Shown here piece by piece: positions 3,377 to 59,176 of a DNA stretch of 64,000 bases. The position numbers and the translations under genes are program-made. The notes under the pieces were generated by a model. That model was given only the letters and a program-made list of their open reading frames with translations. It was not told the origin of the DNA and ran no database searches. The stretch's first letter is position 1; each line of letters starts with the position of its first letter. This stretch comes from Gekko japonicus (lineage: Eukaryota): contig NW_015166508.1 of assembly GCF_001447785.1 (NCBI RefSeq), forward strand, positions 62,001 to 126,000. Reading direction: 5' to 3'.

Positions 3377-3556
3377 AGATGAATAGTTTGTCTGTAGCAG
3401 CAGAAAAGAGCAGGAGTCCAGTAGCACCTTAAAGATTAACAAAATTTGTGGCAGGGTATGAGCTTCCGTGAGTCACTGGTATCTGAAGAAGTGAGCAGCG
3501 ACTCACGAAAGTTCATACCCTGCCACAAATTTTGTTAATCTTTAAGGTGCTCCTGG
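3377..3556. mobile_element. Penelope-like element (PLE)-derived palindromic repeat (inverted pseudo-LTR arrangement)
   Basis: Near-perfect inverted arms (about 3418-3475 vs 3500-3556): GCACCTTAAAGATTAACAAAATTTGTGGCAGGGTATGA / TCATACCCTGCCACAAATTTTGTTAATCTTTAAGGTGC; truncated by the gap. Confidence 0.7.
3478..3519 (+). ncRNA. Minimal type I hammerhead ribozyme motif
   Basis: GGTAT-CTGAAGA(A)-GTGAG-cagcga-CTCAC-GAAA-gt-TC-ATACC: helix I GGTAT/ATACC, helix II GTGAG/CTCAC, conserved core boxes, predicted cleavage after C3514. Confidence 0.65.
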
Positions 3557-15100: not shown

Positions 15101-15282
15101 ATATGGCTCTTATTCTAGCAGGAACTCCTTTGCATATTAGGTGACACACCCCTAATGTAGCCAATCCTCCAAGAGCTTACAGTAGCCCCTGTAAGAAGAG
15201 CTCTGTAAGCTCTTGGAGGATTGGCTATGTTAGGGGTGTGTCGCCTAATATGTAAAAGAGTTCCTGCTACAAAAAGAGCCCT
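15101..15282. mobile_element. Fully palindromic hAT-type MITE, copy 1
   Basis: About 80-bp arms GCAGGAACTCCTTTGCATATTAGG...AAGAGCTTACAG / CTGTAAGCTCTT...GAGTTCCTGC; near-identical to 57701-57878. Confidence 0.8.
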
Positions 15283-21879: not shown

Positions 21880-22890
21880 TTAAGCGCCATCAAGCCTCTT
21901 CTGACTTCTGATGACCCTATGAATTAATGACCTCCAAAACATCCTATCATTAACAGCCTTGCTCAGGTCTTGCAAACGAATGACTATGGCTTGCTTTATA
22001 AAGTCAATCCATTTCTTCTTGGGTCTTCCTTTTTCCCTGCTGCCTTCCACTTTTCCTAGCATTATTGCCTTCTCCAGTGACTCTTGTCATCTTACAATGT
22101 TACCAAAGTATGAGAGCTTCAGTTTAGTCATTTTAGCTTCTAGGGAGAGTTCAGGCTTGATTTGGTCTAGAACCCAATGATTTGTCTTTTTGGTAGTCCA
22201 CAATATCTATAAAACTGTCCTCCAACACCATATTTCAAAGGAATCTACTTTCTTCCTGTCAACTTTCTTCATTGTCCAACCTTTACACCCATACAAAGTG
22301 ATGGGGTAAACTATAGCATGAATTAACTTTATCATGGTTGCCAGCAACACATCCTTACACTTAAGAATCTTTTCTAGCACCCTGACCTCGATAGCCCAGG
22401 CTAGCCCAATCCCATCAGATCTCAAAAGTTAAGCATGGTCAGCCTTGGCTAATATTTGGAAGGGCAGCCTCCAAGGAATACCAGGGTCGTGATGCAGAGG
22501 CAGGCAATGGCAAACCACCTCTGAAATGTCTCTTACCTTAAAAACAAGTCTAGCTCACCATCTAGTGGTGCCTAATGCTAAAGAGGTAGAACTTCTGGCT
22601 GCCAGACAATCTTAGGATCTCCTGGCTATTCTATACACAATACCATACGATGATGATGATGATAATGATAATAATCTTTTCTAGCTCCTTCATGGCTGCC
22701 CTTCCCAGGCTCAATCTCTTTCTGATTCCTGGGTTGCAGTCTCTCTTGTGGTTGAAGATGGAGCTAAAGGATAGAAAATCTTGAATAATTTCAATTTCTT
22801 CATTGTCAGCCTAAAAGTTCTATAATTCCCCAGCAGTCATTATTTTTGTCTTTTTGATGTTCAGCTGTAATCCTGCTTTAGCACTTTCTG
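21880..22890 (-). mobile_element. Older RTE/BovB-related LINE 3' fragment, interrupted at 22379-22672
   Basis: ORFs 21880-22062 (LGKVEGSREKGRPKKKWID) and 22207-22425 (LYGCKGWTMKKVDRKKVDSFEIWCWR); ends in (CA)n at 21861-21880. Confidence 0.85.
22379..22672 (+). mobile_element. Chimeric retroposon: 5S rRNA-derived SINE head plus a distinct 3' tail module
   Basis: 5S-like box A/box C region at about 22404-22490; tail from 22546 ending CCATACG(ATG)n; 13-bp TSD AATCTTTTCTAGC at 22366-22378 and 22673-22685. Confidence 0.8.
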
Positions 22891-28254: not shown

Positions 28255-28394
28255 TCAGAGATGGTTTGCCATTGCCTGCCTCTCCATCATGACTGTGGTA
28301 TTCCTTGGAGTTCTCCCATCCAAATACTAGCCAGAGATGACCCTGCTTAGCTTCCAAGATCTCATGAAATCGGGCTATCCTGGGCTATCCAGGT
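28255..28394 (-). mobile_element. 5S rRNA-derived SINE, 3'-truncated
   Basis: Reverse complement contains GGAAGCTAAGCAGGGTC...TGGATGGGAG...GGCAATGGCAAACCA. Confidence 0.8.
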
Positions 28395-28476: not shown

Positions 28477-28672
28477 GGGACAGCCCACACTAGACCGATC
28501 GTAAGCCAAGCTGGGTTGGCCCTGGTTAGTACTTGGGTGGGAGACAACCAAGGAAGTCCAGCGTTGCTATGCAGAGGCCAGCAATGGCAAACCACCTCTG
28601 ACTGTCTCTTGCCTTGAGAACCCTCTGATGTTGCCATAAATCCGCTGCACTAGACGGCACTGTCCACCACAT
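28477..28672 (+). mobile_element. 5S rRNA-derived SINE with RTE-type tail
   Basis: GCCCTGGTTAGTACTTGGGTGGGAGAC (5S-like), then GCAATGGCAAACCACCTCTG...GACGGCAC. Confidence 0.8.
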
Positions 28673-35176: not shown

Positions 35177-35179
35177 ATA

Positions 35180-35309
35180 GGCTGCAGTCACACACACTAA
35201 ACAATCCACTTTCAATGCACTTTCCAACTGGATCTTGCCAGTTCACACAGTAAAAATCCAGTTTGAAAGTGGACTGAAAGTGGATTATTTAGTGTGTGTG
35301 ACCGCAGCC
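35180..35309. mobile_element. Short palindromic PIF/Harbinger-type MITE
   Basis: TIRs GGCTGCAGTCACACACACTAAA / TTTAGTGTGTGTGACCGCAGCC; TSD ATA. Confidence 0.85.
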
Positions 35310-45055: not shown

Positions 45056-45106
45056 CATTATAATATATTAAATATATAGGGTGTTGGGCAGCCTAAACCT
45101 AAGACC

Positions 45107-45328
45107 TCCCCCCCTGAGCTAGTTTGGTGTAGCGGTTAAGAGCAGCAGACTAATCTGGAGAACCAGGTTTGATTCCCCACTCTTCCACCTGGAGCTCTCT
45201 TTCAGGGCTCTCTCAGACCCCGAAATAAGTCTAGCTCACCACAAAAGAGCTAGAATTTAAGGCTGGCTGACAATCTTCAGATCTCCTGGCTATACTACAC
45301 ATAATGCCATACGATAATTGTTATTATT
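45107..45328 (+). mobile_element. Chimeric retroposon: Squam3-type tRNA head plus the same tail module as 22546-22672
   Basis: Head TTTGGTGTAGCGGTTAAGAGC...GGTTTGATTCCCCAC; tail from 45227 (AAGTCTAGCTCACCA...GCCATACG); 10-bp TSD ACCTAAGACC at 45097-45106 and 45329-45338. Confidence 0.8.
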
Positions 45329-45889
45329 ACCTAAGACCCCAGCACTGGTGCATTGTCGGTGTAGTGCCATACCAGTGTTGCTATTTTGGCATTCCGTGCT
45401 TGTTTTGCACAGCAGACATGTGGAAAAAAAATGCCTCTCCAAGGTGCGGAGAGATAGTGATTTCACCAGAGTCCATAGTAACTCCACTGATATTGATTAA
45501 TCACCGTGTAACATGGTGCCAGACCAGTGCCCTCATGATTTGCAGACACATGGGTTCTAGTTTCAGGTTGTGTGGGCCTCAAAGCAAGAAGAATGCAGAG
45601 ATTGAGGTAGCAATGAGGGGACTCGGAGTGGCACCTTCACAAATTGCATTCCTGTCAATGTCCCAATAGTTCCCTGGGGAAAGGAATAGGAGGCATGGGC
45701 TTGAGTCACACTAACAGGTGTGTTGGCAGGAAAGCAAAGCTCACTTTTTGCCCAGCAGCAGTAAAATACCACCAACTGTAACCATTGATTCAACTGGTCT
45801 CACATGAACAAGACATAGCATAGGGCATCCCCCAGTAACCCTGCTATTGACACCAGCCATATAGAGAGGAGATGGAAAGACTGCAGAGA

Positions 45890-55575: not shown

Positions 55576-57700
55576 ATGGTCTGGACCCAGAAACAGATAC
55601 GAAGGCAGTGTGGATGTTCTCAGGAAGCCTTCTCCTGGTCTCTGTCTTACTAGGTAGCAAGAATATTGGATCATAGCAAGTGGAGACTCATATTTGAAGA
55701 AAGGACTAGCCGCATTCCTCATAAAACGTGCTAATCTGTGTACATCCCCAAGGAATGTTTGACGCAAGTGTCCCCTCAGGCTGAAAGCTCAGATTTAAAG
55801 ATTCCCCCACCCCAGCAGTACAGAAAGGAACAGATTATTTGGCAGAGGCAAAAATTATGAATAGAAAAGGTATTACAGGCACAATGTGGGAAGGCTTACA
55901 AAGAACCTTGTCAAAATATTAAACAAGTTTTCTTCGTTGATTGCAGTATCTAAAAAAAAAATCCTTTCGCTTTATTAAGCCAGAGGCCCAGTTATGAAAG
56001 GTGTTGAGAAGAATGCTCAGTATCAACATATTTCATTGGTAATTGAAAGCACCCTGTATCTGGAATGAATAGTCATCGCTTTGCTGTCTTTAATTTGGAA
56101 TCAAAGTCTTCTTGGGGCTTAGCCCACAATTATATTAGCTCATTTTTGCTTTCCCTGTAAAAAATGTAAGTCAGAGCCATTCATAACTTCCAACTCTCTG
56201 TTAAAGCCGGCAATTCCAGTTCTGCATTGCCTGGGACCAGTATCGGGGAACTTTAAAAGAGCTTCTAAAATACCTGTGGCACCATAAAATGATATTTTTA
56301 TTAGGATTAATATGAATACCTGTTTGTCCGACATCACAGAGCACACAATGGAATTGCTGTGGCTCAAAGAACACGGGATAGCTATTTTGTCAGGCAGCTT
56401 CACTCCCATTGTTCTCAGCCTGAGCCAGCAGAGCTGCTTCTGCCCTACATTCCTGGGACGTGAATAATATCAGCAAAGATTACCCTGTAGTACCACATCT
56501 GTTACTAACAGGCCATTATAAAGATTGAGTATAACCTAATTAGGAAATGCTGTAGTCAGCTGGGTGTGGATGTGGGCTGATGAAGAATCATTTTACATGA
56601 GCATTGCTTGTTATAAAAGGGTGTTCATAGAAGATAAAGGAAAGGTACCTAATGTGGTTCTCTGTGCTGAGCTCAGATTTCACAAACAGAGCTTGCATTC
56701 CTCATATGGTTACTAGTGGGCTAGGACAGATCAAGGACTAGTCCCTAAAATTCTCCTGTTCAAAGTCTAAGCACTGCACAGAGTCAGTGTAAACCACATT
56801 TCACCAGCTGCTTCTTTTTTAATTAAGATATATTAATGGGTAAATTCCAAAGTTTAGAGTAAGAGGCATATTGAAAGGGAGTATGGTCCACGGGGATGCT
56901 GTCTCCATCATCTGCAATTCCAGATGGACTATCCCAGGGAATTTGAGTTGGAGCAGATGTTTGTTCTACTTGCAGAAGGTGAAAAGTCATCCATTTTCCC
57001 ACCATTTGTGCTAGGAGGTCAACACAATGATTGGTTGCCTAACCCTTTCCATTGTAAGTACCTAAGATTAATTAATAACTAACTAAATTAATAAGGATAA
57101 GAAAGTTGATTCTTAGGTAGAGGTGGATTTGGATAGTGGCCTTCAAATAGTAATGTGTATATTCTTCCAGCTCACTGGCACCCATATGTAACCATGACTA
57201 CAGGTTTAACTCCAGTGCTGTGTCAATGTGGTGCCCATATCTTATGCATATTGCAACTGTCACATCTCGTTCCGTATGTGAATTGAAACATTCATAAGGT
57301 GGGGCCACAAAGACTACCCATCAGCTTTTTCAGAGGCTGTCCTCCAGTTGTGAAATGCCCCCTTCCTTTCCCTTCACTTAACATTTTCTTGCAAGAGGTA
57401 GAGATATTTTGCTTACAAGGATTTTGATATTGGTTTTATATTGTTATATTATATTACTTTGTTGTTTGTATATCATGTTGTACAGCTGTAGTAAAGAGGT
57501 GGTATACCCATGTTTTAATAAATGACACAATAAATAATATACATTGATGGGATGTGAACTAGTGACTGACCAGGAAAGAAATCTTAGGGCCACAAGTTGA
57601 TGTGCAGCAGTAGTGAAAAGGAGATTTCTGTCCTAAACATTGTGAGGAAAGGGACTGAAAACAAAATGGCCACTATCACAATGCCCTCGTATAGATCTGT

Positions 57701-57878
57701 GGGCTCTTTTTGTAGCAGGAACTCCTTTGCATATTAGGCGACACACCCCTAATGTAGCCAATCCTCCAAGAGCTTACAGTAGCCCCTGTAAGAAGAGCTC
57801 TGTAAGCTCTTGGAGGATTGGCTACATTAGGGGTGTGTTGCCTAATATGCAAAGGAGTTCCTGCTACAAAAAGAGCCC
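57701..57878. mobile_element. Fully palindromic hAT-type MITE, copy 2
   Basis: GGGCTCTTTTTGTAGCAGGAACTCC...GGAGTTCCTGCTACAAAAAGAGCCC, near-perfect arms. Confidence 0.85.
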
Positions 57879-59176
57879 AAAGGCTCTTTGATCAACTAAA
57901 ACCATTCCCTGGATTAATTTGGGATTTTAAAAAAATTTATTCCCTCCCCGCCCCCGATAAATTCTCCTAAGGGAGGAGAAGAAGGCATTTTCCAGTATGG
58001 ATTAGCTGCAATTATTATGTACTGGGTCAGCTCAAGGTCATAGATTAGAGTTCTGGAGCAACTTGTCATATTCAGTTTCCAATTAATTAGTCTACAGTGT
58101 AATAAAAGAAGAGCTCTACTGGATCAAGCCAAGGTCTACCTAATCCAGCAGACAGATATTGCAGGGAAGCTTACAAGCAGCACATGAAGTCAACAGCCTT
58201 CTCCTATGCTTTGTCCTCAGCACCTGGCATCCAGAAGTATATTGCCTCTGATGTTAAAGGTCCTATTTAGCTATTATGGCCTACAGACTTTTGTGCACCT
58301 ATCCTCCATGAATTGTCTAATCTTTTTCTTTTTAAGCAATCCAAGTTGTTGCTGGTGAAGGGCATAAGTGACTGCACTAACCATCCACTGCCTTAAGATG
58401 TGGTGCACTGACAGTAGTGTGTCACAAAGCACACTATTACCCTGGCACTGTTGATGTGCTTGTACTGGCTGTTTGAAAGGACATATTTTCAGCAGCTGAG
58501 TAGGAGGGTTGCTAATTGGCAGGGAGTGCCACCCATCCGAGAGATAAAAGTGATGGATGTAATATTTAGAAGGAAGTCCCCGACAAGCTGGGCAATACTC
58601 TGTGCCATGGAGATGATAAACGGGAGGACAAATCATCTGTTCCTCTTCAGTTCTGTGTATGTTCTGCTTATTGATCGCATTCATCTGGAAAGGCAGCCAA
58701 AACAGATGTGCCCATCTTGAGTCAGCAAATCCTCACTGTCTCTCCTTTCCCACTAGTGCTCTGCTTCATATAGGTTCAGTGATAGATCAGTACAGTACAG
58801 CACACTTTGATTGCTGTATGGAAAGCTCTCTGCTCAGGTGTTTGATGGATGAAGTTTAATAAAGACTGGTCTCTTCGTCTTGCCAGCAGCAAATGTAGTC
58901 TGCACACACATTGTACCAAACTTCTACTGAATGTTTCTACACTGTGCAACCCCCTCCCCCCAAAGATGCTTCATTTTGCTTCATGCAATACATGGTCCCA
59001 CCCTGATCCAGCATTAATCACATAATTTCTCATACCCATACGGTACATGTAGGTTTGCTAGAGGGGGCATGGGGTCGGCACCGAACATGGCGGATGCTGT
59101 CTGAGTGAGCTCCATCCCTTCCCTTGGACCCCTCCCGATGTACCTTTAAGCACAGGAGCCTGAACGCGCCCAGAGT

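Follow-up and report, generated by a model that had tools for sequence, protein, structure and literature searches.

The window analysed here is a 64,000-nt stretch of Gekko japonicus contig NW_015166508.1, and at positions 22366–22685 of its forward strand it carries a composite retroposon. The element is bounded by a single 13-bp target-site duplication (TSD) at 22366–22378 and 22673–22685, a sequence with only these two occurrences in the window, which bears out an initial observation that one TSD encloses both a 5S head and a different back end. Between the TSD copies, the forward strand reads through a 5S rRNA-derived SINE head that is predicted to be a likely Pol III promoter (22379–22495), a middle piece resembling an RTE 5′ UTR (22496–22545) that sequence comparison traces to the ordinary 5S SINE and that closes with the linker TTAAAAAC (22538–22545), a 105-nt module (22546–22650), and a (TGA/TAA)n simple-repeat tail (22651–22672). 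Rfam RF00001 matches the head weakly at 22381–22495 (29.4 bits, E 0.054, below the cut-off of 38), and comparison of consensus sequences identifies it as the same head that is present in the ordinary 5S SINE. The RTE likeness of the middle piece was judged by eye against SINE-1_Pmo, SINE2-2_ACar and BovA2 in the accessible part of the PMC5786205 supplement. Alignment of the module to its partner LINE divides it into a broken predicted HDV-like ribozyme (22546–22591, LINE nt 8–60 minus parts), the remaining LINE 5′ UTR up to the ATG of the open reading frame (22592–22639, LINE nt 61–108), and the last ~10 nt of the LINE 3′ end (22641–22650), where the LINE 3′ consensus terminates in (C/T)TGCCATAC(G/A)A.

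The same window holds, on its forward strand, an ordinary 5S SINE that finishes in RTE-type sequence and represents the type from which the 5S head derives (28477–28672). The preliminary description had placed the end of the head where the ordinary SINE continues into its RTE-type end, and in a consensus of 20 ordinary copies the point of departure is exact: in the ordinary SINE ..GCCTTGAAAAC is followed by the RTE-type end, in the chimera ..GCCTTAAAAAC directly precedes the module, and the middle piece ends TGAAAAC in the former and TAAAAAC in the latter. The reverse strand holds another 5S SINE head at 28255–28394, which breaks off behind its middle piece and stands back to back with the 28477 SINE. 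A sister element at 45107–45328, also on the forward strand, carries the module behind a different head. By eye, this tRNA+CORE head (45107–45226) is the 5′ part of Squam3B ending ..CTCTCAG(A/C)CCC and followed by an A-rich linker, and it matches the Squam3B consensus of scaled reptiles given in the accessible part of the PMC7983390 supplement. The L2-derived 3′ part and (CTT)n tail of Squam3B are absent, and in their place stand a module with a larger deletion, in which the P2 hairpin alone remains of the ribozyme (45227–45314), and a TAA-type tail with the 3′ TSD copy (45315–45338). The sister element has its own 10-bp TSD around head and module (45097–45106 and 45329–45338). The two modules share their start as originally claimed, with identical first 15 nt from 22546 and 45227, and both end CCATACGA, at 22650 and 45314. 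ARAGORN found no tRNA genes in the window. Elsewhere in the window, long palindromic repeats with sub-threshold miRNA-family matches (15105–15281, 57697–57882, 35178–35309 and 3418–3556) are probably MITEs.

The module combines both ends of a Vingi-like LINE

We reached the partner LINE through an inverted look-alike adjoining locus L002, which led to a second family whose members share one start base. Roughly 94 of the 105 nt of the module (about 90%) correspond to the 5′ UTR of this LINE and only ~10 nt to its 3′ end; the alignment covers LINE nt 8–108, interrupted by a single 7-nt gap, and resumes only in the final ~10 nt. The shared piece had first been taken for a 3′ tail module, a designation that must be revised because most of it is 5′ UTR; the suggestion that it terminates in a Vingi/Ingi-type 3′ end holds for its last ~10 nt. 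The LINE is extinct and ~3.1 kb long, with a single open reading frame that begins at an ATG near nt 107 and encodes APE and then RT. Copies share an exact 5′ end, and L091 and L216 hold both ends. Two of six stop-free pieces were informative in domain searches (Exo_endo_phos_2, E 3e-7; RVT_1, a weak E 2.5e-4), and one LINE copy is collinear to residue 996 of a 1000-aa APE+RT protein without an RNase H family, a family likewise absent from the 120 relatives listed for that protein. According to the available portion of PMC13708176, a single open reading frame without RNase H separates Vingi from Ingi, and by its sequence we class the partner LINE as Vingi-like. The 20 loci recovered by protein search are all members of a single LINE family, and stops interrupt every long match. 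The LINE tail is (TAAA)n, whereas the SINE tails are of the TAA/TGA type.

The LINE has also given rise to elements that lack a Pol III head. L072, a headless element of independent origin, retains its 5′ end intact, breaks at nt 131 and finishes in the same ~10 nt of 3′ sequence as the module; with L074, L082 and L076 it belongs to a set of headless, internally deleted copies with differing breakpoints. Four further copies (L071, L075, L257 and L255) consist of 5′ sequence without the 3′ end, three of them with an apparent TSD, and L255 contains only LINE nt 1–62, the predicted ribozyme. Bipartite LINE pieces within SINEs were described by Kojima in 2018 (PMC5786205), and the module is of the same kind with an unusually small 3′ part. 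Long-range pairing between the LINE 5′ and 3′ UTRs was considered as a cause of the deletion point and rejected, as the duplex of −24.5 kcal/mol was matched by 70 of 500 shuffles and, with the whole 5′ part, 397 of 500 shuffles reached the duplex energy.

The exact LINE 5′ end is often inverted relative to the downstream piece in a twin-priming-like arrangement. By rule this applies to 8 of 30 loci picked by their 5′ ends (L062, L063, L065, L066, L067, L069, L085 and L086) and by eye to L061, L080 and L088; L103 is also inverted. Loci found with an exact pattern are 5′-inverted in five of nine cases (L252–L254, L256 and L260), L254 being the same place as L069 and L260 the same as L065. TSDs enclose both parts at L065, L067, L069, L086 and L103. 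At L062, the sequence 3′ of the LINE piece contains a reading frame that we take to resemble a cytochrome P450 exon. Among three LINEs tested elsewhere, 5′ inversions were nearly confined to human L1, as stated in the accessible part of PMC4245944.

Two heads occur at fixed junctions in families of many copies

Genome searches with two tail queries, A and B, returned the same two heads. The best 30 of 40 scored matches to tail A all carried a 5S head, and 30 matches to tail B comprised 25 with a tRNA head, one with a 5S head and four others. One of these four, L049, was rejected as a third head because it is a tRNA-headed copy interrupted by another, nested SINE, and the remainder look 5′-cut. 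For head-blind sampling, we used a 32-nt pattern from the module 3′ end with 415 exact genome matches (control, 0) and took 90 of the first 92 listed among these, leaving out two already sampled. The 90 copies divide into 55 with a 5S head, 27 with a tRNA (Squam3B) head and 8 others scored as headless and mostly 5′-cut, six of which start at inner module positions 18–41 and one of which, L200, looks like a weak tRNA-type copy on inspection by eye. No third head type occurs among these 90 module copies, a sample that requires an exact 32-nt match and that rare or older heads could escape.

The junctions are fixed: 52 of 55 5S-headed and 22 of 27 tRNA-headed copies have a module that begins no further in than its nt 7, in keeping with the discrete module first proposed, and one 27-nt junction has 591 exact copies in the genome. 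TSDs of at least 10 nt are present in 27 of the 82 headed copies against a null rate of 1/60, and 26 of these 27 enclose the head. Only one lies inside the module, so that a search for TSDs excluding the head, suggested at the outset as a sign of nested insertion, yields a single case. With many copies, a fixed structure and a TSD around the whole, the 5S chimera is the unit of mobility. Recapture of 7 of 55 copies gives ~4,600 5S-headed copies, and about half that number with a tRNA head, as rough arithmetic with a wide error. The head–module junction is spanned by contigs from four sequencing runs that carry the labels of four other organisms, and this suggests that the family is older than the Gekko japonicus lineage. 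Non-CpG divergence is 6.2% in the 5S family (45 of 55 copies, after low-scoring or interrupted ones were dropped) and 6.1–6.6% in the LINE (18 and 15 of 20 loci), and this equality implies that both were active together; the tRNA family stands at 10.6% (19 of 27 copies, mixed subfamilies). Tandem units made of part of a 5S SINE plus the module occur at L004, L009, L012 and C856:324–646, with a period of 148 at C856, and may constitute a SINE-derived satellite.

The SINE module carries a predicted ribozyme without its P1 strands

The first 60 nt of the LINE can be read as a minimal HDV-like ribozyme. In the predicted fold, P1 pairs nt 1–7 with 32–38 beginning with a G-U pair, P2 pairs nt 10–18 with 52–60, and P3 pairs nt 19–21 with 29–31, accompanied by a 7-nt L3, GG at nt 39–40 as P1.1, a 5-nt stand-in for P4, and GCUAA with C47. 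P1, P2, P3, P1.1, L3 and the J4/2 cytosine stand in order in the LINE 5′ end from G1; the element names and the predicted catalytic role of C47 follow those of HDV. With the 5′ end of L072 as query, three HDV-like families rank at the top of 4,227 Rfam families (E 0.005–0.08), one of the models beginning at LINE G1, at scores of 23.8, 23.1 and 22.7 that fall well below the respective curated cut-offs of 44, 37 and 50; a second copy, L070, gives E values of only 0.39–1.3. Across 30 LINE 5′ ends, pairing is retained in 250 of 270 P2 cells, 85 of 90 P3 cells, 60 of 60 P1.1 cells and 178 of 210 P1 cells, counts from decayed copies of one family chosen by likeness that fit the fold and show no covariation. 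All 30 ends retain the C of GCUAA. A T precedes G1 in 21 of the 30 copies, which cleavage at G1 leaves unexplained unless the T was added untemplated.

The SINE module begins at LINE nt 8, the first base past the 5′ P1 strand. The ribozyme part at 22546–22591 therefore lacks the 5′ P1 strand, its 7-nt deletion removes most of the 3′ P1 strand together with the P1.1 GG, and L3 carries two changes relative to the LINE. None of the 82 headed SINE copies keeps the 5′ P1 strand, most of the 3′ P1 strand or P1.1, and none has the LINE-type L3, the sole CCCTGG match being elsewhere in position. In the tRNA subfamilies more of the ribozyme core is lost, down to the bare P2 hairpin of the 45227 copy. 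Among the 30 loci picked by their 5′ ends and the 9 exact-pattern loci (4 places shared), intact LINE 5′ ends are never preceded by a sense Pol III head. The direct precursor is missing, as a ribozyme-intact headless element with the exact 3′ junction of the SINE had 0 matches in an exact, and hence weak, search. Kojima reasoned in 2018 that a 5′-end ribozyme able to cleave itself would truncate a headed SINE and thereby limit which LINE parts SINEs carry (PMC5786205), and the broken predicted ribozyme of the SINE module fits this prediction.

Order of events and alternative explanations

We consider it highly probable that the element at 22366–22685 belongs to a SINE family with thousands of copies, in which the RTE-type end of a 5S-headed SINE was exchanged for a bipartite Vingi-like piece with a broken predicted ribozyme, and that a second family likely followed through a swap to the tRNA (Squam3B) head. 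A single gain of the Vingi-like piece, consisting of the 5′ UTR from nt 8 and the last ~10 nt, by a 5S-RTE SINE would have come first, with a template switch as the probable mechanism; replacement of the 5S head by that of Squam3B would have followed. The tRNA family head stops where Squam3B continues into its L2-type part, and the commonest linker before the module is TAAAAAC (8 of 22, the others being A-rich variants); this linker, common to the 5S and tRNA families, makes a head swap the likely origin of the tRNA family. The shared module start is then explained by one origin and a later head swap and not by independent joinings. That the 5S family came first and the tRNA family later is very likely, with some certainty taken away by the greater divergence of the tRNA family, unlike that of a younger family. 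The SINE would be transcribed by Pol III from its head, and its RNA would be reverse-transcribed in trans, through target priming, by the LINE protein. Were the ribozyme intact, it would sever the head from every transcript, so only a broken version could have founded a headed family, and as the junction at nt 8 would by itself break the ribozyme, the later deletions may be neutral decay. Since only ~10 nt of the LINE 3′ end are kept, recognition by the LINE protein probably relies on the retained 5′-UTR hairpins together with the short terminus.

The preliminary description had weighed capture at each insertion, in which template switching would join abundant Pol III RNAs to a free module, against chimeric SINE families that changed partner LINE. 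One module with two different heads would suit capture, as would L044, a 5S-headed copy whose short core resembles a tRNA subfamily. Tabulating heads and junctions, as that description had advised, gives a few recurrent junctions, the 591-copy junction among them, and two heads in 90 copies, with a 5S head in front of tail A in 30 of 30, so the second option stands; the heads moreover derive from SINEs with a common linker and not from 5S rRNA or tRNA genes, and headless copies begin at varied inner positions. Capture at each event is accordingly very improbable. Nested, independent insertion of head and module has a still smaller, practically negligible probability: it could appeal to L158, whose TSD is the one inside the module, and to L049, which looked headless, yet the head lies within 26 of 27 TSDs and L049 is an interrupted tRNA-headed copy.

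Independent acquisition of the module by the two families, from a free bipartite element whose ribozyme was already broken, would accommodate a few near-headless copies with TSDs (L040 and L055) and the higher divergence of the tRNA family. However, the A-rich linker of the 5S SINE middle piece is present in both families, L040 retains this linker and L055 starts within the module, as expected of 5′-cut copies, and we regard this origin as improbable. A greater but still minor share of probability falls to the view that ribozyme loss was incidental, either because the LINE 5′ fold is inactive or because the nt 8 start reflects a chance 5′ truncation at the founding switch without selection. 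Sub-threshold Rfam scores, a P4 of only ~5 nt and the incapacity of one founding event to show selection point this way, as does the Vingi 5′ fold that SINE2-1_AMi, by eye and in the accessible part of the PMC5786205 supplement, mostly retains. Against this, all core elements are ordered and begin at the first base of the LINE, LINE copies share that 5′ end, and headed copies with an intact core were not seen among those sampled, which makes the incidental reading unlikely.

Discussion

Bipartite-Vingi SINEs and head swaps are already published. According to the accessible parts of PMC5786205 and PMC4494074, which draw on Kojima et al. 2011, SINE2-1_ACar and SINE2-1B_ACar of the anole join a tRNA head to 5′ and 3′ parts of Vingi-2_ACar, so that in these lizard families, too, a bipartite Vingi piece follows a Pol III head; as judged from these descriptions, the gecko families are set apart by the 5S head, the leftover RTE-like middle piece, the head-swapped second family, the ~10-nt 3′ part and the mapped broken predicted ribozyme. 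Alligator SINE2-1_AMi, as given in the accessible part of PMC5786205, combines a tRNA head with the Vingi-2_Gav 5′ end and a 3′ end of unknown origin, and likewise carries a Vingi 5′ end in the SINE middle. Vingi-2_Gav nt 2–74 in the same partial supplement show HDV-like P1, P2, P3 and L3 by eye and are carried by SINE2-1_AMi, which, likewise by eye, keeps P1-like strands with loop changes where the gecko module has lost them.

In published head-swap pairs, too, a single LINE-derived back end stands behind more than one kind of Pol III head, with single origin argued from shared diagnostic changes; they include CoeSINE4/5 and HaSE1/HaSE3, with tRNA versus 5S heads on one RTE tail (PMC5786205), and TguSINE1/PittSINE (accessible part of PMC5729268). 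In the gecko, by contrast, SINE families that already existed supplied the heads, and the back end derives from a Vingi-like LINE. The tRNA head donor is Squam3B, whose L2-type 3′ end, as described in the accessible part of PMC7983390, is replaced, and the 5S head donor is a 5S-RTE SINE such as SINE-1_Pmo / 5S-Sauria (PMC5786205), whose RTE-type 3′ end is replaced. Bipartite LINE derivatives with an HDV-like ribozyme at the 5′ end are described for NARTc/RIME/SIDER with L1TcRz (PMC4035085) and for R2 SIDEs (PMC3414825). In the accessible parts of both sources, ribozymes are active on headless bipartite elements of L1Tc/ingi and R2; these elements have no Pol III head and many have an active ribozyme, the opposite of the gecko case. 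Among the papers listed for the Vingi, SINE, HDV-like-ribozyme and gecko/squamate literature, we found no published demonstration of the broken ribozyme, of a Vingi ribozyme or of these families, and Kojima 2011, Ruminski 2011, supplements, patents and Repbase Reports may hold part of it.

As genome annotation alone, these data add two SINE families, and the points of most weight are the broken ribozyme and the ~10-nt 3′ end. One genome holds both the partner LINE and its SINEs, which lack exactly the P1 strands, and this puts the idea of Kojima 2018 within reach of a test on short RNAs. That only ~10 nt of 3′ sequence are present also suggests that the cis signal used by Vingi proteins is very small; according to the available portion of PMC13708176, RNA-based gene insertion is a use for which lizard Vingi-1 is being developed, on a template that carries both UTRs. 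Tentatively, and with somewhat less than even confidence, we propose that Vingi LINEs may free their own RNA by a minimal HDV-like ribozyme, that their cargo may be recognised mainly by its 5′ UTR with ~10 terminal bases sufficing, and that a Vingi-driven SINE would be born only once the ribozyme is destroyed, a step that both lizard families would record.
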